From the IMG/VR virus record IMGVR_UViG_3300005611_000001: 64,000 nucleotides of DNA. One strand, 5' to 3'. Origin of the DNA: a virus (lineage: Duplodnaviria > Caudoviricetes). The translations under genes and the position numbers were made by a program. The notes under the pieces were generated by a model that was not told the origin of the DNA, searched no databases, and saw only the letters and a list, made by a program, of their open reading frames with translations. Below are positions 4,194 to 50,367 of this stretch, piece after piece; the first letter of the stretch is position 1; each line of letters starts with the position of its first letter.

Positions 4194-5132
4194 ATGTCAA
4201 ACGATTTTCTGTGGGTCGAGAAGTATCGCCCGCGCAAGGTAGAAGATGCTATTCTACCGAAGCCTCTCAAAGAAGTCTTTACCAAGATCGTGCAGTCTGG
4301 TGAATTGCCTAACATGCTTTTCACTGGCACTGCAGGTCTTGGCAAGACTACAGTCGCGCGCGCTCTGTGTGACGAATTGGGATACGATTACATTGTGATC
4401 AATGGCTCTGAAGAGGGCAACATTGATACTTTGCGAGGCAAGATCAAGCGCTTCGCTTCTACTGTTTCTCTCAGTGGTGATCTGAAGGTTGTCATTCTAG
4501 ATGAAGCAGATTACTTGAATCCACAATCGACTCAGCCTGCTCTTCGTGGCTTCATCGAAGAGTTTTCGAACAACTGTCGGTTCATTCTGACCTGTAACTT
4601 CAAGAATCGTATCATTGAACCTCTACACTCTCGCTGTGGTGTGTACGAGTTTAATACGACCAAGAAAGAGATGCAGGCTCTCTGCGCAGATTTCTTTGTC
4701 CGTCTCATTCATATTCTTGAAAGTGAAGGCGTATCCTTTAATAAAGACCTGATCGCTCAATTGATCATGAAGCATGCGCCTGACTGGCGCCGTGTGATCA
4801 ATGAGTGTCAGCGCTACTCTATTGGCGGGCAACTAGAAACTACAGTTCTCAATAATGACGTTTCGGGCAACTATAGTGTTCTTTTCAAGGCTCTGAAAGA
4901 CAAAGACTTTAAAAAGATGCGTAGTTGGGTTGCGCAGAATGTTGATGTCGATGTTTCTGCAATTTTTCGACATATATACGATAGTATGTACGATTGTGTT
5001 TCACCTTCGTCCATACCACAGTTAATATTAATCCTTGCAGATTATCAGTACAAAAACGCATTTGTTGCTGATCACGAACTAAACGTGGTTGCGTGTATGA
5101 CTGAAATAATGGCAAATGTGGAGTTTACATGA
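4194..5132 (+). CDS. gp44: Clamp loader large subunit (AAA+)
   Basis: LWVEKYRP, GTAGLGKTT, VVILDEAD, RFILTCN, PLHSRC. Confidence 0.97.
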   Translation: MSNDFLWVEKYRPRKVEDAILPKPLKEVFTKIVQSGELPNMLFTGTAGLGKTTVARALCDELGYDYIVINGSEEGNIDTLRGKIKRFASTVSLSGDLKVVILDEADYLNPQSTQPALRGFIEEFSNNCRFILTCNFKNRIIEPLHSRCGVYEFNTTKKEMQALCADFFVRLIHILESEGVSFNKDLIAQLIMKHAPDWRRVINECQRYSIGGQLETTVLNNDVSGNYSVLFKALKDKDFKKMRSWVAQNVDVDVSAIFRHIYDSMYDCVSPSSIPQLILILADYQYKNAFVADHELNVVACMTEIMANVEFT

Positions 5133-23273: not shown

Positions 23274-23580
23274 TTTATTCGATGAAGCGGAGAGAAAGGT
23301 GATCTGGACAGAGGTTCAACTCCTCTCACCTCCACCAAAAGCACATACGCTGGATATGCAGATAGCATATTGAGACATAAGAAACATCAGGTATGTGCTT
23401 TTGATGGGGGTGTACTGGTTTCGACAGGTGCTAAGTATCAAAGTGGAGAATCGTCAAGCGCTGACGCTAAACAGAGCAACCTAAAATAAACGCAAACGAT
23501 GACGTTTATACCGAGGACTTTGCGCTAGCAGCGTAAACCTCGCGGGGTTCGCCGGAGCCTTGTTACCCAAGTCCGGCACT
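23274..23580 (+). ncRNA. ssrA: Circularly permuted (two-piece) tmRNA
   Basis: T-arm AGAGG-TTCAACT-CCTCT and CACCTCC-ACCA (ends 23337) lie upstream of the GGGGGTG...TTCGAC 5' end (23406); acceptor stem has G3.U70 and A73; tag ORF 23492-23536 ANDDVYTEDFALAA*; outer boundaries approximate. Confidence 0.9.
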
Positions 23581-28894: not shown

Positions 28895-30301
28895 ATGATT
28901 TTCAATACCGAAAAGAAGTACACCTACTCGTCCCTCCCTGGCGCTGAGCGTTCCGTCACTATCCGTGACTTTCTGTTCAACTATCTGCCTACCATTAATT
29001 GCATTCCCGAAGGTCAGCGCCTTGAGACTGAACCCAATATGATTGGTATCAGCCAGCCTTCGAAGGCGCAGGGCATCATCCAGTCTCTGTTTATGGGCAT
29101 GGATCTTGGTACTATCGTTCTTTGTCAGTCTCAGGACGGTAAATGGTCTTTTGATTCCGTAGACGGCGGTCACCGCAAGCGAGCCATCAAGGCGTTCATC
29201 AACAACGAATTTCCCATGTTCAGCGACGGTCGCTACTTCCGAGACCTGACTGAGGAAGAGCGAGCCCGTTTCCTTTCGTCCGAGCTAACCGTGATCGTCT
29301 ATGAAGGACTGACTCCCGAAGATATCGCCTTTATCTTCCAGTCCTTGAACAAGACTACTGACGTTAATCACATGGAGATGCTCAACTCATACAACGTGAT
29401 TCCCGTTGCAAAGATCATTCGCGAAACAGCGCGAGTAGTCTACGGCGTGAATAACGACTGCCATCCTCTCTTTGGAAATTACGAAAAGAATGGCACAGTC
29501 AAGTATGATTATCTCAACTTCGATAACGCTCGGTTGAAGATTGACAAGAAAGTGGCTCGTATCTTCTATCGCTACTATAATGGCGGCGGCCTTGGTCCGT
29601 GCGCTGAAGAAAATCTTGAAGAAATGTACAATGCATATCCTGACCTTCAGACTATGCTCAATCTGAAAAAGAAAGTAAACAAGTGTCTGTCTTTCATTCG
29701 CGATATGGCTGAGGTAGTCAACAAGACCTTGAGGCGTGGGCTGACAGAGAAAGAGTTTCGTATCTTCGAACGGCTCTACATGTTCATGGAAACTGAGTTT
29801 GGCGATTTTAAGATCAATGATAAGACTGAGTTCGGTAAAGCAGTCATTTCCGCTTACCTGCCGTTCTTCAAGATGCCGTACGATTCACAGATTCCAGCGC
29901 TTCTTAAGAAGAGCCCGTTCGACAGCACGAAGACCATCGGCAAGCAGTTTAATGATGCTCTGAACGTATACGACACTCTAGAACACGTTGAGTTTCCGAT
30001 TGTCGAATTGATCAAGCGTCCAGAACTGAAGATTGAGCAACTGATCACGATCAAAGACAAGAATCGCTTGTTCAGCCGTACTGATCGTGAAGCCAAGCTT
30101 GCTGAGCAGGGATTTGTCTGCGCCATCGATGGCAAGCCGCTGTCTTTCGAAGAAGCTGAAGCTGCACACATCATCGCACACAGCGTTGGCGGCCGTACCG
30201 TCTACAAGAACCTTGCGATGGTGCGAGCCAAGTACAATAAGATGATGGGCTCTATGTCAGTAGACGATTTTAAGAAAGTGTATATGCCTGTAGCTGCTTA
30301 G
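28895..30301 (+). CDS. DUF262 (ParB-like) + C-terminal HNH protein, GmrSD-like architecture
   Basis: SVDGGHRKRAI, IFQSLNK; AAHIIAHSVGGRTVYKNL...KYNKMMG. Confidence 0.7.
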   Translation: MIFNTEKKYTYSSLPGAERSVTIRDFLFNYLPTINCIPEGQRLETEPNMIGISQPSKAQGIIQSLFMGMDLGTIVLCQSQDGKWSFDSVDGGHRKRAIKAFINNEFPMFSDGRYFRDLTEEERARFLSSELTVIVYEGLTPEDIAFIFQSLNKTTDVNHMEMLNSYNVIPVAKIIRETARVVYGVNNDCHPLFGNYEKNGTVKYDYLNFDNARLKIDKKVARIFYRYYNGGGLGPCAEENLEEMYNAYPDLQTMLNLKKKVNKCLSFIRDMAEVVNKTLRRGLTEKEFRIFERLYMFMETEFGDFKINDKTEFGKAVISAYLPFFKMPYDSQIPALLKKSPFDSTKTIGKQFNDALNVYDTLEHVEFPIVELIKRPELKIEQLITIKDKNRLFSRTDREAKLAEQGFVCAIDGKPLSFEEAEAAHIIAHSVGGRTVYKNLAMVRAKYNKMMGSMSVDDFKKVYMPVAA

Positions 30302-30324
30302 AACAAAATGTTCTGAAAAAGTTC

Positions 30325-30387
30325 TTGTATTTTGTTTCGAAATCGTTTATTCTGGTACTTGTCAGGTGGGGAGAAGCGCTCCCCACC
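30325..30387 (+). promoter_or_regulatory. Early promoter and 5' leader hairpin
   Basis: TTGTAT-17-TATTCT; 9-bp hairpin 30365-73/30379-87. Confidence 0.55.
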
Positions 30388-30409
30388 ACTTCAAACTCGG
30401 AGATATATC

Positions 30410-31357
30410 ATGGCACATATGGTTGAAACGATGGCTTACGCAGGTGAGCTTCCCTGGCACGGTCTCGGTACGAAAGTGCCCGCTGACCTCACCCCTCGTC
30501 AGATGATGGACAAAGCTGGTGTTGACTGGCGCGTCAATCTGGTACCCACTTACGCTGATGTGAACGGGTCGAAAGTTTCGACTGGTCAGAAGGCTCTCGT
30601 GCGCGAGACTGACAATCGTGTACTGACCAACGTCGGTGGCAACTGGAACCCCGTGCAGAACGAAGAAGCGTTTGACTTCTTCACTGAGTACTGCCTTGCA
30701 GGTGATATGGAAATGCACACTGCTGGCTCTCTTGCTGACGGCAAGATCGTCTGGGCTCTCGCTAAAGTGAACGAGTCGTTTGATGTGCTTGGCGAAGACC
30801 GTGTAGACTCTTACCTGCTCTTCTCTAACCCGCACCAGTACGGCAAGTCGCTGAACGTGCGCTTCACGCCCATCCGTGTGGTGTGCAACAACACGCTGAC
30901 TCTCTCGCTGAGCCAGAGCGCTAAGAACGAGGTGACGCTGAATCACCGTCGGGCGTTCGATCCTCAGATGGTCAAAGATCAGCTTGGCATCGCCCACGAG
31001 AAGTTCGCTATGTACCGCGAAATGGCTCGGTTCCTGTCTAAGAAGCGCGCCAAGAATGGTGATGTGATTGCGTACTTCAACAATGTCTTCCCGCTGGCGA
31101 ACAGCAAGACCGAGGTGCGTGACTACGCTGACCTCTCTCGCACCGCTAAGCAAGCGTATGATGTGCTTGAGACGCAGCCTGGCGCTGACATGGCGATGGG
31201 CACGTGGTGGAACGCAGTGAACGCTGTGACCTACCTGACCGATCACCAGCTGGGTCGCTCTGCTGACACTCGGATGCAGTCTGCATGGTTCGGTGCGAAC
31301 CAAGCGAAGAAAGTCCGTGCAATGAACCTTGCTGTGGAGATGGCCGAAGCCGCGTAA
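30410..31357 (+). CDS. DUF932 family protein
   Basis: AYAGELPWHGLG, VQNEEAFDFF, AGSLADG, PIRVVCNNTL, WNAVNAVT; start set at ATG 30410. Confidence 0.85.
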   Translation: MAHMVETMAYAGELPWHGLGTKVPADLTPRQMMDKAGVDWRVNLVPTYADVNGSKVSTGQKALVRETDNRVLTNVGGNWNPVQNEEAFDFFTEYCLAGDMEMHTAGSLADGKIVWALAKVNESFDVLGEDRVDSYLLFSNPHQYGKSLNVRFTPIRVVCNNTLTLSLSQSAKNEVTLNHRRAFDPQMVKDQLGIAHEKFAMYREMARFLSKKRAKNGDVIAYFNNVFPLANSKTEVRDYADLSRTAKQAYDVLETQPGADMAMGTWWNAVNAVTYLTDHQLGRSADTRMQSAWFGANQAKKVRAMNLAVEMAEAA

Positions 31358-31872: not shown

Positions 31873-31914
31873 TATAAATACCCATACATTAGTCATTCTT
31901 TTGTATGGGTATTT
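31873..31914 (+). promoter_or_regulatory. Late promoter overlapping a 13-bp RBS-occluding hairpin
   Basis: TATAAATA 31873-80; AAATACCCATACA/TGTATGGGTATTT. Confidence 0.7.
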
Positions 31915-31917
31915 GCT

Positions 31918-32466
31918 ATGCGTAAAATATTATTCTTTGCTTTGTTTGCACTGAGCTATGCTGCTCAAGCTGCTGAAGTGGGTCCGATCATCACTGAAGC
32001 AACCACTAACAGTACCGTCACCACGCAGTCTGATACGACGACCACTCTAAAGTCGCCGCCAGCGTCTGCCATTTCGCCTACCATCAACACTTCGAACTCT
32101 GATCTATGTACCTTCGGAGTTGCTGGCGCGATTCAGACGCAGATTCTCGGCATCTCAACGGGTACTCAGGTGACGGACGAGAACTGCGAGCGCCTGAAGC
32201 TAGCCAAGACGCTCTATGACATGGGTATGAAGGTGGCTGCAGTGTCCACCATGTGTCAAGACAAGCGCGTCTTTGACGCAATGATGAGCGCTGGTACGCC
32301 GTGCCCATACGATGGAATGATCGGCGAAGACGCTAAGGCTGCATGGGCTGTGAACGAAGACCAGCAACCAAATGCTAAGAAGCAACAGGAGGGGATCAGC
32401 GATGGGTCTAAGACGCTGCTGGGCGGCGCTGGCGTTGCTAGCCTGCTCTTCTTACTGCTACTCTGA
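31918..32466 (+). CDS. Exported protein with Cys-bracketed beta-hairpin and hydrophobic C-tail
   Basis: Signal peptide ..YAAQA; DLC-TFGVAGAIQTQILGISTGTQVT-DENC; tail LLGGAGVASLLFLLLL. Confidence 0.7.
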   Translation: MRKILFFALFALSYAAQAAEVGPIITEATTNSTVTTQSDTTTTLKSPPASAISPTINTSNSDLCTFGVAGAIQTQILGISTGTQVTDENCERLKLAKTLYDMGMKVAAVSTMCQDKRVFDAMMSAGTPCPYDGMIGEDAKAAWAVNEDQQPNAKKQQEGISDGSKTLLGGAGVASLLFLLLL

Positions 32467-33274
32467 AGAAGTCTTTGGTACGACTCAGAACGCAGCCTCG
32501 ACCGGGCTAAACTGGGTCATGACTGAGGTTCTACCGCAGCAAGCTGGCTTGACAGTCAATAGTGTCATCTATCGTTACACCAGTGTCAAGCAGACTGAAG
32601 ATGATATGCTGGTCCATGTGCAGAATCAGAACGCAGAAGCACCTGGATTCATCTTCCGAGAGACTGACGACTGGTCTGGTCTGCCTGGTAACACGATCAA
32701 CAAAGCAATCCCGGTTGCAAACATACCCATACAGTTATGGGGCGACGGGTCGATTGAAGTAGAAGGGAAGGGTGAAGTGACGAATGCTTCGGTGCTGTAT
32801 AGCTTTCAGTTCGACCCATGCTTCGATCCTCAGAGCAATCCGTCATGCCCTGGCTATGTCGATCCGTTTGAAATGCTAATGAGTGAGATCAGTGTGAAAG
32901 ATCCTCTCGACGATGATCTTCTGCAAGCAGAGTTAAGACGCAAATCGAATCTTGATGCACAAGAAGAAGATGAGGAAGAGCGCCAGCGCCGTAGAATGAA
33001 ATCAGATGATAAGGGAGACGACGACCGTCTTGAGGCTATCATGGGCATCGTCAACACTTCGCTACTCGCAACAGAAGCAGCAGCGAAGCATGCTGAGCTT
33101 GCAGCACTAAATAGCATACCACAAACCTATTTTGCGGTGATCCCAGATACTAAATACGAAGAGACAGTTGTATTAAAAGACGGGAGGTTGCCGGAAAATA
33201 AAAGAGCAAGACGGGTCGGATTTGCACAACAATTGCTTCATGAAAAAATGGTGTCTTCTCAGTATGAAAAATAG
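32402..33274 (+). CDS. Exported protein, beta-rich N-domain (adhesin-like)
   Basis: SD GGAGG before ATG 32402; signal peptide; CFDPQSNPSC; charged linker. Confidence 0.6.
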   Translation: MGLRRCWAALALLACSSYCYSEEVFGTTQNAASTGLNWVMTEVLPQQAGLTVNSVIYRYTSVKQTEDDMLVHVQNQNAEAPGFIFRETDDWSGLPGNTINKAIPVANIPIQLWGDGSIEVEGKGEVTNASVLYSFQFDPCFDPQSNPSCPGYVDPFEMLMSEISVKDPLDDDLLQAELRRKSNLDAQEEDEEERQRRRMKSDDKGDDDRLEAIMGIVNTSLLATEAAAKHAELAALNSIPQTYFAVIPDTKYEETVVLKDGRLPENKRARRVGFAQQLLHEKMVSSQYEK

Positions 33275-33310
33275 TCAAAAAATCGACACCACGATTAAGG
33301 AGAACAAGTA

Positions 33311-33811
33311 ATGTTCAAGAAATCCCTGGCTGTAGCAGCAGCCACACTTATCGGGATGAATGCTATAGCTGAAGATGTGACGATCACAGGGACAGTGGCT
33401 TCGAAGTGTGTAATCACAACAGACACTGTTGGTATTTACGGAAACCCTACTCCTAGTGAGCTTAGCACTGCACCTGCAGACGGTGGCGTTCTGCCCATCG
33501 TTCGCTATGATGTGCTTCAGGCCAACTTCTACAAAGCCCGCATCACTTATCCAGAGTCTTTCTCTGAGAGCCCTGCGCTTGATGATGTTGTGACATGGAC
33601 TGGTGATGTGACGGTTGCAGAAGTCACTGATGCTGGCATGTCCGCATATGACGCAGCAAAGGTTGAGTTTAACAATGTGACCGAAGTTGATCTAACGATT
33701 GCGGGCAGCACATGGTTCCAAGTTGAATCGACTGCAGACTATGGTGTGACAAAAGCATTTCCTGCAGGTACTTATCGCGCGATTGTAAGCGCAGACTGCA
33801 TCGCACTGTAA
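33311..33811 (+). CDS. Exported fimbrial/Csu-pilin-like protein
   Basis: Signal peptide ..NAIA; DVTITGTVASKCVI; C-terminal FPAGTYRAIVSADC. Confidence 0.55.
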   Translation: MFKKSLAVAAATLIGMNAIAEDVTITGTVASKCVITTDTVGIYGNPTPSELSTAPADGGVLPIVRYDVLQANFYKARITYPESFSESPALDDVVTWTGDVTVAEVTDAGMSAYDAAKVEFNNVTEVDLTIAGSTWFQVESTADYGVTKAFPAGTYRAIVSADCIAL

Positions 33812-33814
33812 TCC

Positions 33815-34189
33815 GTGCGCTATATTATGATGGCGGTGGTGATGTCGCTGAGTGGGTACGCGAGTGCCCACCAGTGGCTTCCTACTTACCCTAAGCTTGA
33901 GCCGTCTTATGTTTCGGGTGTGCTTAGAGTAAAGATGGAGCTATTTAATAGTCGAAGTGATGTACGATACTACGAGTTAAATGTTTACGATAAAGACTTT
34001 AGGTCGATAAAATTTGCAACACAAGAACGAATCATTGAAGTTGATCATTTGAAGCGAAAGAATGTTGAAATATACATTCGTGAACAGGACAAAGGCATTG
34101 CGACATATGTCTGTTCTAAATCTAAATTACTGAAGGGTACAGGCGGAGCGACACTCGTCTCTTCGCAGATATGCTCAAAAATAAAATGA
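33815..34189 (+). CDS. Exported Ig-like (PapD chaperone-like) protein
   Basis: GTG start, signal peptide ..YASA; alternating beta-strands KMELFNS..YYELNVYD. Confidence 0.5.
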   Translation: MRYIMMAVVMSLSGYASAHQWLPTYPKLEPSYVSGVLRVKMELFNSRSDVRYYELNVYDKDFRSIKFATQERIIEVDHLKRKNVEIYIREQDKGIATYVCSKSKLLKGTGGATLVSSQICSKIK

Positions 34190-34608
34190 GATTATTATTA
34201 GTTTTGTTATTGGTGATTTGTGGAAATGCATTTGCTCAGAGCAGTTTGAATCTTGCAATTCCACAAAGCCCACAAAGTTTCCAGCAAGACAGAGTTCGCG
34301 CTGGTGATCTTGAATGTTCAGCAGCAATTGGTTCGTCAACAAATGTTGAGTTTGGGGTTGTTGGAATATTAAATCAAAACAACCCATTTCAAAATCAGTT
34401 TGGTATTGATCCCATAACTGGGCAATACTCTGATAGATTTGTAAGGGATGTTGGTGTATATGGTCGAATTAACATACCGATCGGTGCACCTAAAGAGCGA
34501 TTAAATTGTAATTTACTTTATACTTTAGAATTAGAAAGGCGCAAACTTGAAGTGATGAAATTAAGGCAGGAGATCGCACAATTAAGACGACTTCAGTTTG
34601 AGGAATAG
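34186..34608 (+). CDS. Exported protein with amphipathic beta-strands and coiled coil
   Basis: Signal peptide ..NAFA; NVEFGVVG, DVGVYGRINIPIG; two Cys; C-terminal heptads. Confidence 0.6.
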   Translation: MRLLLVLLLVICGNAFAQSSLNLAIPQSPQSFQQDRVRAGDLECSAAIGSSTNVEFGVVGILNQNNPFQNQFGIDPITGQYSDRFVRDVGVYGRINIPIGAPKERLNCNLLYTLELERRKLEVMKLRQEIAQLRRLQFEE

Positions 34609-34610
34609 AA

Positions 34611-35156
34611 ATGTCTGACAAAGATTTAGGCGAGAGTCTAGAAAACTTTGAAGATGAAATAGAGAATTTAAAAAACACTAAGTTTACATTATTTGGTATT
34701 GCAATGACACCTACAACAATAGGTGCTGCATTTGCATTAATTGGTACAATACTTGGTACTCTCTATGGTGGGTTTGAAACATATAAAGCTTTTCAAGAAA
34801 TGGCTGAGAAGTTAGAAGTATTAGATATTGAGGCTGTTGAAGCCCGTAATGTTGCTATTGAAAGAAAACTTGATGATGCTATTGATTATACTCGTGATAT
34901 AAAGAATAGCCTTAAAGATGATATAATTAGAATTGAACAAGTAACAGAACGAACAAGTAATAGAGTTAAAACAGTACAAGATGAAATAGACCAGCGATTA
35001 AGATTATTATCTGATATTAATCGTGAAACAGAAAAAGATGTCCGAGATACTATGCGAGACACCGAGAATCGCATAGAGTCGAAGATGGAGAAGCTGGACA
35101 AAGACCTCCGTGAGACACTGCAAAAGGCTCTTGACAATCCTCTTGCTGACGGCTAG
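34611..35156 (+). CDS. Single-pass membrane coiled-coil protein
   Basis: TM IGAAFALIGTILGTLYGGF then long heptad region. Confidence 0.7.
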   Translation: MSDKDLGESLENFEDEIENLKNTKFTLFGIAMTPTTIGAAFALIGTILGTLYGGFETYKAFQEMAEKLEVLDIEAVEARNVAIERKLDDAIDYTRDIKNSLKDDIIRIEQVTERTSNRVKTVQDEIDQRLRLLSDINRETEKDVRDTMRDTENRIESKMEKLDKDLRETLQKALDNPLADG

Positions 35157-35325
35157 CGCTGGATGCGCTACGACTGACACGCTGGAGCAAGCTAGGAACG
35201 CGCAGGTGCGACACCTGCGCGAAGCCTGTATGAACCGTGCAGTCCAATCTACCCTTCCCTCACCGCTCGTCAGAGCGTCCACAGTGCACCAGTGCCACGC
35301 ATGGGCACGGTCTCAGGTGCAATAA
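35110..35325 (+). CDS. Putative lipoprotein overlapping the upstream gene
   Basis: MRHCKRLLTILLLTASAG|C lipobox; GTG start, weak SD. Confidence 0.45.
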   Translation: MRHCKRLLTILLLTASAGCATTDTLEQARNAQVRHLREACMNRAVQSTLPSPLVRASTVHQCHAWARSQVQ

Positions 35326-35363
35326 GAACCCCGTTTTTAGAACAAAATATTCTAACAAAACCG

Positions 35364-35392
35364 TTGACAGCACCTCGGATCCGTGAGACAAT
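35364..35392 (+). promoter_or_regulatory. Early promoter
   Basis: TTGACA-17-GACAAT; shares GATCCGTGAGACAATA with 35828 promoter. Confidence 0.6.
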
Positions 35393-35422
35393 ACTCGCGT
35401 TGATTGAGAGAGGTGACCACAC

Positions 35423-47645: not shown

Positions 47646-47975
47646 ATGGCAGAAGAAGAAAAAAAAGAGAAGGGCTATCATCCCGCAGACACAAACGGTG
47701 ATGGTCATGTGTCTGAAGAAGAACACCGCATGTATATGGAGTTTAAGCGAAAAGAACTGGAGGATGCTGATGCGATGCGCGATGCGCAAAGAAATATGAC
47801 ATGGTTTGCGTTGTTTGGTTTGTTACTATATCCTTTTGCTGTTGTACTTGCAGACTGGATTGGGCTTGACAAAGCCTCTGAAATTCTAGGAGACATGGCT
47901 GCTACATACTTTGTTTCTGTTGCTGCTATTGTTGCTGCATTCTTTGGTGGGCAAGCGTACTCTGCTAAAAAGTAA
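47646..47975 (+). CDS. EF-hand + two-TM membrane protein (holin-like topology)
   Basis: DTNGDGHVSEEE loop; two hydrophobic helices. Confidence 0.6.
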   Translation: MAEEEKKEKGYHPADTNGDGHVSEEEHRMYMEFKRKELEDADAMRDAQRNMTWFALFGLLLYPFAVVLADWIGLDKASEILGDMAATYFVSVAAIVAAFFGGQAYSAKK

Positions 47976-49012: not shown

Positions 49013-49182
49013 AATCGTTCAAGCAATTTGTTGAAGAGCCTACAATGACTACAGGTCCTGGCATTGCTGGTACTTCGAAAAACGATCCCGCAGACTGGAT
49101 GTACGGCAAGAAGAAGAAGCGTCGACCCCTCACCAGACGCTATATTGAAATCAACGGCAAGTTCAAAAAGCAGCAAAAATGA
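49009..49182 (+). CDS. Small basic protein with capsid-targeting-like N-terminus
   Basis: GTG 49009, MKSFKQFVEE. Confidence 0.6.
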   Translation: MKSFKQFVEEPTMTTGPGIAGTSKNDPADWMYGKKKKRRPLTRRYIEINGKFKKQQK

Positions 49183-49469
49183 TTCGTTTGCTGCCCGTTC
49201 TGCTATTGTCAGGATGTGCAGTTGCATGGTCGCCTGATATGATTCGCGACGAACAGCCCGACGAAACTTTTCTATATACATTAAGCATTACGGGAACATA
49301 TCCCAAGAAACAATTTATGAATGCGCAAGAAAGAGCAGCGTATACACAACTGCCTCCGCATGCGCAAGATAATATGATGAAGTATTATAAACAAAGAGAG
49401 AAAGACAGAGAGCGGTCGTCTGAATTACTTAATTGCTGGTTAAAAATACCACCGAATTTGGAGTGTTAA
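49179..49469 (+). CDS. Putative lipoprotein
   Basis: MIRLLPVLLLSG|C. Confidence 0.55.
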   Translation: MIRLLPVLLLSGCAVAWSPDMIRDEQPDETFLYTLSITGTYPKKQFMNAQERAAYTQLPPHAQDNMMKYYKQREKDRERSSELLNCWLKIPPNLEC

Positions 49470-49472
49470 ATT

Positions 49473-49919
49473 ATGTTTGCGTTTATTAAGATGTTGCCTT
49501 TGATTCTTTTGCTTGGTGGAGGCGCATATGCCTATCATACAACCAAAGTGAGTGAGTTGTCAAGTGTCATTTCACAAAAAGAAGCAGCAATCACCATTCT
49601 AGAAACAAATCAAGAAAAGTTGCTTGAAGCAGAAGCGAAGAATCGCAAAGCTCTTGAGACGATGCAGGCTGATCTAGAGAAGCAGCGTCAAGCATTCACT
49701 AATCTTTCTACCCAACATGCTCAACTTGCAAAAGAGCGTGATGAGTACATGTCTGTCTTTCGTAAACACGATCTGACTAAGCTTGCTAGACTCAAGCCAG
49801 GTCTAATCGAACCCCGTATTAATAAAGGCACTGAAGCAGTATTTCGACAAGTAGAACAAGATAGCCGTGAAGTAGACCAAGCTGATGATGAAGTGGAGGT
49901 TGCAAATGAAGAAGGTTAG
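49473..49919 (+). CDS. Inner-membrane spanin (Rz-like)
   Basis: N-terminal TM + long coiled coil; precedes overlapping lipoprotein gene. Confidence 0.7.
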   Translation: MFAFIKMLPLILLLGGGAYAYHTTKVSELSSVISQKEAAITILETNQEKLLEAEAKNRKALETMQADLEKQRQAFTNLSTQHAQLAKERDEYMSVFRKHDLTKLARLKPGLIEPRINKGTEAVFRQVEQDSREVDQADDEVEVANEEG

Positions 49920-50367
49920 TGTTATACTGCTCGCGTTGATTTTGTCTGGATGTTCTACATTCGGGCTGCCTAAGTTCGGTTTTGGTAAAAAGCCTGAACC
50001 CGAGCCTCTCCCCCCTAAGATTGTGACAGTGACTGAGACTGTGCCTCTGCGCATCTATCAGCCACCGCTACCTCAAGAAATCGCTCTTGAGAATGTGAAG
50101 TTCTTTGTGATTACTAAAGACAACTTAGAAGAACAAACTGCAAAGATTGAGAAAATTCTGGGTGGTGACTTGGTAGTGTTCGCTCTGACACCTCAGAGCT
50201 ATGAGAACATGGCGTTTAATCTGCAAGAGATTCGTCGCTATGTTCGCCAGCAGAAAGAGATTATTCTATACTACCGCGAAGCAACAACTGGTGATGAAGG
50301 CACTGACGCTGATGACTGGCTTGAAAAGAACAAAGAAGTAGTAGAAGAACAGCAAAAGCCTAATTGA
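49906..50367 (+). CDS. Outer-membrane spanin lipoprotein (Rz1-like)
   Basis: MKKVSVILLALILSG|C; Pro-rich N-part; overlaps i-spanin. Confidence 0.7.
   Translation: MKKVSVILLALILSGCSTFGLPKFGFGKKPEPEPLPPKIVTVTETVPLRIYQPPLPQEIALENVKFFVITKDNLEEQTAKIEKILGGDLVVFALTPQSYENMAFNLQEIRRYVRQQKEIILYYREATTGDEGTDADDWLEKNKEVVEEQQKPN

Follow-up and report, generated by a model that had tools for sequence, protein, structure and literature searches.

The DNA analyzed here is a 64,000-nucleotide stretch (the window) of the virus record IMGVR_UViG_3300005611_000001 (Duplodnaviria; Caudoviricetes). It covers the region for replication and accessory functions in a T4-like phage genome, with genes for gp43 polymerase, UvsX, gp41 helicase and ribonucleotide reductase, and all of its large open reading frames (ORFs) lie on the + strand. 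At positions 31918-35156 it holds six co-oriented genes, here called A to F, that are tightly packed or overlapping. A first-pass annotation of this DNA had described them, with a seventh ORF, as a late operon for a surface-fibre system. We find a set of exported proteins whose genes combine two cassettes, and one of these proteins, C, resembles a fimbrial subunit. The genes, the promoter motif in front of them and the ORF behind them are as follows.

31873..31880, + strand: T4-type late promoter motif TATAAATA, 38 nt 5' of gene A
31918..32466, + strand: gene A, 182 aa; signal peptide, Thr/Ser-rich stretch, SPPPSAISP motif, 4-Cys helical core, C-terminal hydrophobic anchor
32372..33274 (start 32372 or 32402), + strand: gene B, 290-300 aa; signal peptide, beta-rich head, C..CPGY, acidic linker, AQQLLHEKM..QY
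33311..33811, + strand: gene C, 166 aa; fimbrial-subunit-like beta-sandwich with N-terminal V.I.G.V..C and a C-terminal G.Y....C strand
33815..34189, + strand: gene D, 124 aa; small exported beta protein whose mature N-terminus is an invariant His; conserved Cys pair
34171..34608 (start 34171 or 34186), + strand: gene E, 140-145 aa; signal peptide, Cys-bracketed Gly-rich beta-prone segment, amphipathic C-terminal helix
34611..35156, + strand: gene F, 181 aa; N-in inner-membrane anchor, periplasmic coiled coil of about 130 aa, C-terminal L.DNPL
35110..35325, + strand: ORF G, probably not a gene; GTG start, atypical lipobox with Ser at -3, no homologue in related loci

Scanning IMG/VR with B as the query yielded 59 loci. 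The order A-B-C-D-E-F is complete in 42 of them, at 29-92% identity, and in a further 7 the module is cut by contig ends and otherwise colinear; the arrangement is therefore not a product of chance, and the co-conservation that the first-pass annotation had named as a check is present. Because the flanking genes vary between loci, the block is also mobile. In the other 10 loci (L050-L059) C-D-E is missing, and A and F accompany a much longer B' that matches B only over the C-terminal 60-110 aa (tblastn). Contigs of metagenome-assembled genomes (MAGs) carry both forms, A-F and A-B'-F, and since these matches are spread over unrelated bins, no host can be assigned from them. Among cultured phages, the A core was detected by tblastn in the pelagiphage podophages HTVC115P, 023P, 033P, 202P and Baldr, in the pelagimyophage Mosig, in the roseophages CRP-207 and CRP-810, and in Ralstonia phage RSP15. 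In Mosig, HTVC115P and Baldr this A' is followed by a long B'-like protein and then by an F-like protein that ends in NPL(A/S).

The genes missing from the shorter form turn up elsewhere by themselves. Relatives of E occur in 182 Vibrio phage records, and in Vibrio phage PS14A.1 an 818-aa fibre-like gene is followed by C-like, D-like and E-like genes. The E-like protein matches E with an hhalign probability of 97.9%; the C-like protein matches C over its full length at 74.5% and is probably homologous to it; the D-like protein is syntenic and has the matching Cys pair, with an hhalign probability of 4%. Searches by tblastn with A and with F found no Vibrio phage record, and one T4-like relative has the order F-C-D-E. 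Since each cassette also occurs alone, the window operon can be read as a trio, C-D-E, inserted into a frame, A-B-F. From these gene orders we conclude that two cassettes, each mobile by itself, make up the operon, a point that goes beyond the first-pass annotation, as does the finding that its relatives lie inside lysis cassettes or behind tail-fibre genes.

The comparison of loci also defines where the operon ends. ORF G has no homologue at any related locus, even where F is 90% and 83% identical, and in the closest relatives (L001 and L003) similarity stops right behind the F stop codon. Beneath the ORF runs a GC-rich spacer of 266 nt (35157-35422) with a strong RNA fold (-101.9 kcal/mol, z -2.74). 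The lack of conservation, the divergence of relatives after the F stop and the structured GC-rich spacer lead us to exclude ORF G, which by these sequence criteria is probably not a gene and not part of the operon. Of the seven packed genes first proposed, six thus stand, colinear in relatives, and the possible lipoprotein at 35110, with its atypical lipobox, is withdrawn. The spacer itself contains a 10-bp GC hairpin and is missing from close relatives, one of which (L003) has a tRNA-like sequence in its place; a sigma70-like promoter comes after the spacer (35364-35392).

The promoter motif TATAAATA occurs 8 times in the window, always on the + strand, where 1.75 copies would be expected by chance. 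This excess, together with the copy 38 nt before A, makes a late operon plausible, and 11 of 37 related loci have the motif no more than 120 nt ahead of A. In four metatranscriptome runs from three studies, contigs span 31930-35144 in pieces at 90-99% identity and all leave the upstream gene uncovered; the evidence is weak, since a contig is no proof of transcription. It is plausible from the layout that A to F form one late transcription unit. DNA of the window is present in freshwater, salt-marsh and marine metagenomes.

Hydrophobic N-termini with AXA-like cleavage sites are retained in the homologues of five of the proteins (A, 36 of 38; B, 28 of 39; C, 29 of 29; D, 31 of 31; E, 25 of 27), and in the alignments the mature N-termini are conserved immediately behind the AXA-type sites. 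F instead crosses the membrane near residues 26-50, in N-in orientation, and continues as a periplasmic coiled coil. The five Sec signal peptides and the single transmembrane coiled coil of the first-pass annotation are accordingly present, and so is the export that it proposed: judging from these conserved signals, A to F are a Sec-exported, envelope-resident set and not virion parts. A late promoter would also be expected of virion genes, and one could suppose that the products are virion or cytoplasmic proteins with N-termini that merely resemble signal peptides. We consider this extremely improbable, as the signal-peptide features are kept in five families, the conserved Cys pairs are typical of periplasmic proteins, and no structural-protein PHROG was matched by any of A to F, whose PHROG matches were weak and all to families of unknown function. 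None of the six proteins gave a match in Pfam or NCBIfam.

The structural resemblance of C to fimbrial subunits is found by several methods. Its model is a beta-sandwich over residues 33-166 (predicted local distance difference test score, pLDDT, 87.6; predicted template-modelling score, pTM, 0.75), and the mature N-terminus ahead of it (V23, I25, G27, V29), although conserved, does not pack in this monomer model. This alternating hydrophobic pattern with its Gly is presumably comparable to the donor strand of Fim and Pap subunits. In protein-language features, C lies nearest to the SCPU (0.95), CS1 (0.93), DUF4402, EcpA and SEF14 fimbrial subunits. Foldseek against the PDB places CfaB, the CFA/I subunit, first (E 6e-4), followed by FimG, the PapG pilin domain and CsuA/B; matches among the AFDB clusters are to DUF4402, SCPU and fimbrial-type adhesion domains, chaperone-usher subunits make up the majority of the top 30 Swiss-Prot models, and the best non-self match in the Atlas is DUF4402 (TM-score 0.54). 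The pilin-like character that had been read from the two ends of the 33311 product is therefore seen alike in the language-model features, in Foldseek and in the Swiss-Prot models. Searching PDB sequences with profiles of A, C, D and E gave nothing useful. Only 120 clusters at 50% identity match the C family; its distant full-length members lie on short contigs or beside phage genes, and no bacterial chaperone-usher operon surrounds any of those whose context was readable. By this distribution, the family appears to be phage-restricted.

The neighboring protein D is a single domain of about 105 aa when mature, with the invariant His at its new N-terminus and a conserved Cys pair in the alignment. 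Complex prediction was run on C with D only. For residues 22-166 of C and 19-124 of D it gave ipSAE values of 0.52, 0.55 and 0.52, versus 0.00 in three controls, with the runs agreeing on at least 89% of contacts and D at a pLDDT of 85. D is thus predicted by modelling, with weak support, to bind C. The third member of the trio, E, has in its alignment a conserved Cys pair around the Gly-rich, beta-prone segment and then the amphipathic helix. The first-pass annotation had likened E and A to one another as Cys-flanked hairpins with helices, and in each of them two conserved Cys do bracket a Gly-rich segment, with a helix after it; the two are not detectably homologous, however, and their descent from a common gene is unsupported (hhalign 9.6%). 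Paralogy of C and D is likewise unsupported (hhalign 19.6%).

The position of the trio in Vibrio phages, directly behind a large fibre-like gene in 182 records, suggests another possible function. Llp of phage T5, encoded beside the gene for the receptor-binding protein and made early, is a small outer-membrane lipoprotein that brings about lytic conversion. By analogy, the exported proteins could mask or alter a receptor or entry route without building any fibre, so that competitors, and the phage's own progeny on debris, could not adsorb or inject. The PS14A.1 E-like gene (L103, 4420-4809) is annotated from 4522, which leaves no signal peptide; an in-frame ATG at 4420 adds one that carries an LAAC lipobox. 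The start in the record is therefore probably wrong, and a lipobox in the protein read from the upstream ATG would suit this explanation. The location of the module in the accessory region of a T4-like genome also fits superinfection exclusion of this kind. However, exclusion genes are usually expressed early, and the promoter of this operon is of the late type; the strong conservation of A, B and F extends over phages with very different hosts, which would not be expected of a receptor-specific blocker; and six proteins are much machinery for masking. We regard this explanation as improbable.

Turning to the frame, the alignment of A shows the Thr/Ser-rich stretch and SPPPSAISP motif leading into a nearly invariant 4-Cys core and a hydrophobic tail at residues 164-182. 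At least 8000 metagenomic relatives at 90% clustering were found, all annotated as hypothetical. The AF2 model has a helical core at a pLDDT of about 80, a disordered Cys-bracketed Gly-rich segment and a low-confidence fold overall, and a comparison with 48,161 PDB chains found no structural match. Across homologues the mature N-terminus of A (31978-32010) reads D/E-(P/T)-I-V-T-(E/D)-S, which we take to resemble a TonB box. In B, the beta-rich head, the C..CPGY motif and the acidic linker are followed by the invariant C-terminal AQQLLHEKM..QY; a feature search of the Atlas with B gave nothing useful. The coiled coil of F varies in length among homologues, and the L.DNPL motif at its C-terminus is invariant. 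One locus of the A-B'-F form (L053, 3448-9474) encodes a B' of 541 aa with repeated C..CPGY units; a SleB-like cell-wall hydrolase gene is divergent from A, and genes for a 107-aa beta protein, a class-3 lipase (1.2e-20) and a transmembrane protein lie between B' and F.

The surroundings of the frame repeatedly include lysis genes. Five podophage-type contigs (L021, L027, L035, L078, L080) begin with tail-fibre genes, a small gene for a transmembrane coiled coil and A-F, and continue with a gene for an EF-hand protein with two transmembrane segments (EF-hand/2TM), a GTA_holin_3TM gene (5.6e-24) and a GH19 endolysin gene (4.3e-8). The EF-hand/2TM gene, whose product may be a holin or a lysis regulator, neighbours the module in 27 viral loci and 8 MAG loci, often immediately ahead of a GTA-type holin gene, and stands directly 5' of F in two A-B'-F loci (L087, L091). 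SleB-like hydrolase genes are close to the module in 8 viral and 3 MAG loci, a holin gene precedes A' in Mosig, and lysozyme genes lie near A' in CRP-810 and MW202481. In Baldr, A'-B'-F' comes immediately before terL, the position at which T7 keeps its lysis genes.

This neighbourhood had made a spanin-like role attractive. The window, however, has its own canonical lysis set.

49179-49469: 96-aa lipoprotein, part of the canonical lysis set
49473-49919: Rz-like i-spanin (phrog_739, 2e-10)
49885-50367: overlapping lipoprotein o-spanin (phrog_812, 1.1e-12)

Homologues of both lipoproteins of this set occur about 2 kb 3' of F in one related locus (L016), and the window's EF-hand/2TM homologue (47646-47975; 109 aa, with an EF-hand-like loop and two transmembrane segments) is close to the spanin pair. 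A complete 173-kb relative (G004) likewise contains the module plus a separate Rz-like pair. Because of these separate pairs in the window and in G004, we conclude from gene content that the A-F module is not the outer-membrane disruption system (spanin) of the phage, and the idea of the whole module as a spanin equivalent is weakened. A more specific candidate, F with ORF G as an overlapping i-/o-spanin pair, was rejected, given the unconserved ORF, the empty lipobox scans and the Rz-like pair at 49473-50367.

An accessory part in lysis is a separate matter. A, B and F, with or without the trio, could form a periplasm-spanning device beside the holin, endolysin and spanin, helping to break or detach the outer membrane or peptidoglycan, or timing lysis as T4 RI does in lysis inhibition. 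The recurrent gene neighbours and the late promoter are consistent with this, as is the topology of F, that of an i-spanin. So is the fusion of A' to an OmpA-family protein in roseophage CRP-810, where the A-like core lies within gp53 (L062, 3606-4579); an unannotated ORF for an 86-aa lipoprotein precedes gp53 there and the lysozyme gene is two genes after it. Yet F matches no spanin PHROG despite its topology, lipobox scans found no conserved lipoprotein partner for it, canonical Rz-like pairs are already in place, and the trio stands alone beside fibre genes in the Vibrio phages. Moreover, the usual late order in podophages is fibres, module, lysis genes, so that adjacency to lysis genes may reflect just late timing. 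We rank a lysis accessory second among the possible explanations and think it rather doubtful.

The explanation that we place first, as a tentative choice, is that A to F are an usher-less set of subunit and chaperone-type proteins on an inner-membrane-anchored frame, building an envelope or surface structure late in infection. A would be tail-anchored in the inner membrane and expose its 4-Cys domain to the periplasm, and F, with its N-in anchor, would cross the periplasm by way of its coiled coil of some 130 residues to the invariant LDNPLA end. B would be a soluble protein that has a beta-sandwich as its head and ends in an invariant helix. C would be the fimbrial-subunit-like beta-sandwich whose free N-terminal strand has the donor-strand-type V.I.G.V pattern, and D a small Ig-like partner holding C as the first domain of a pilus chaperone would. 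E, a disulfide-stapled hairpin with a coiled-coil helix, is probably outer-membrane-associated. Late in infection, a pilin-based structure would then be assembled on or in the envelope without a classical usher, and the surface of the infected cell would be altered around lysis, leading to adhesion or aggregation, or to a block against further phage adsorption.

Several results weigh against this explanation. No recognised outer-membrane pore or usher is present, and the two inner-membrane-anchored proteins have no counterpart in any chaperone-usher system. C has no Pfam or NCBIfam match at E <= 1 and hence no membership of a fimbrial sequence family. The tool used for the C-D complex prediction returned the verdict 'weak support', and PapD_N, alone among named families as a feature neighbour of D, scores a weak 0.81. 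In podophage relatives the module lies right beside holin and endolysin genes, an arrangement that suits a lysis function just as well.

The proposals of the first-pass annotation on assembly can be judged against the same results. The absence of a classical usher holds: all ORFs of the operon are at most 300 aa, and no usher-size ORF lies in it or between A and F in the 42 complete loci. Its lone PapD-type chaperone at 33815 is retained as far as the predicted binding to C goes (ipSAE 0.52, weak) and loses ground in its likeness to the family; a two-domain PapD-type chaperone is absent, D being a single domain without a Pfam match. The surface-fibre system itself is supported in part: C has a pilin-like fold and a predicted binding partner, the genes are conserved together and an usher is missing, and assembly into a fibre stays at the tentative level given above. 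A still more specific version is that the operon encodes an undescribed, usher-independent route to a donor-strand fibre or trans-envelope structure in Gram-negative cells, in which E and/or A, as small disulfide-stapled hairpin-helix proteins, would provide passage through the outer membrane and F with A, as inner-membrane-anchored coiled coils, the base, and which would alter the infected cell before lysis, for example through aggregation or exclusion; we consider this version unlikely. The three leading explanations rank in the order usher-less assembly, lysis accessory, and masking of a receptor or exclusion of superinfecting phages without a fibre. They are not fully separate, since exclusion or aggregation could also be brought about by a fibre. 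The sequence analysis supports the anatomy well: the proteins are exported, their genes form a late unit composed of two cassettes, C is pilin-like and has D as its predicted partner, and two of the proteins, coiled-coil or helical, are anchored in the inner membrane.

Elsewhere in the window, a DUF262/HNH (GmrSD-like) gene and a DUF932 gene (8e-40) occupy 28895-31357, just 5' of the operon, and DUF932 is found near the module in several relatives too (L001, L003, L007-L009). A permuted two-piece transfer-messenger RNA lies at 23277-23536 (Rfam RF04321, 113.9 bits, E 1.9e-21).

The six families are common in aquatic viromes and uncultured phages. A-like proteins occur in cultured SAR11, Roseobacter and Ralstonia phages, and the trio with its E-like protein in cultured Vibrio phages. 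Clear targets for experiments are the division into two cassettes and the C-terminal motifs that are invariant in B and in F. If C does act as a pilin-like subunit, the operon would represent a second kind of phage-borne surface appendage in addition to pelagiphage curli, and would show subunits of fimbrial type at work with no usher. If instead the module serves lysis, it would be a missing part of that process in phages of the ocean's most abundant bacteria.

Among known systems, the chaperone-usher fimbriae, both class 5 (CFA/I-CS1, with CfaB and CooA) and archaic (Csu/SCPU), share with C a beta-sandwich and the layout of the precursor, namely a signal peptide, a short conserved N-terminal strand and a C-terminal G.Y...C strand. 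The likeness extends to D, the small beta protein encoded next to C and predicted to bind it. Unlike those systems, the operon has no usher, no two-domain PapD-type chaperone, no Pfam membership and no recognised tip adhesin, and A, B, E and F are without counterpart there, two of them being inner-membrane-anchored. Two-component spanins such as lambda Rz/Rz1 and T4 PseT.3/PseT.2 resemble F in the N-in transmembrane segment and periplasmic coiled coil, and relatives of the module lie within lysis cassettes; F differs in belonging to no spanin family and having no conserved lipoprotein partner, and the phage has its own Rz-like pair. The Vibrio phage trio has the same three-gene order and a homologous E, but stands alone behind fibre genes, whereas the operon's trio sits inside the A-B-F frame under a T4 late promoter. 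T5 Llp differs in turn, since E of the window has an ordinary signal peptide and the operon is late; the lipobox and the fibre neighbour are features of the Vibrio phage relative only.

Finally, pelagiphages carry curli modules of the type VIII secretion system that have been exchanged between myo- and podophages (PMC9599517). The operon subunit is an Ig-like beta-sandwich and not an amyloid repeat, and no CsgG, CsgF or curlin repeat was detected among the operon proteins in Pfam or NCBIfam. Nevertheless, these modules (CsgG, CsgF, CsgA/B; PMC9599517, PMC9004378) and the operon are both multi-gene exported blocks of aquatic myo- and podophages, take up a similar share of a podophage genome, are swapped between phage families, and give the host, in the operon's case as we propose, an envelope structure that it otherwise lacks. 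By this analogy, the pelagiphage curli module would be the nearest precedent in concept for the operon described here.

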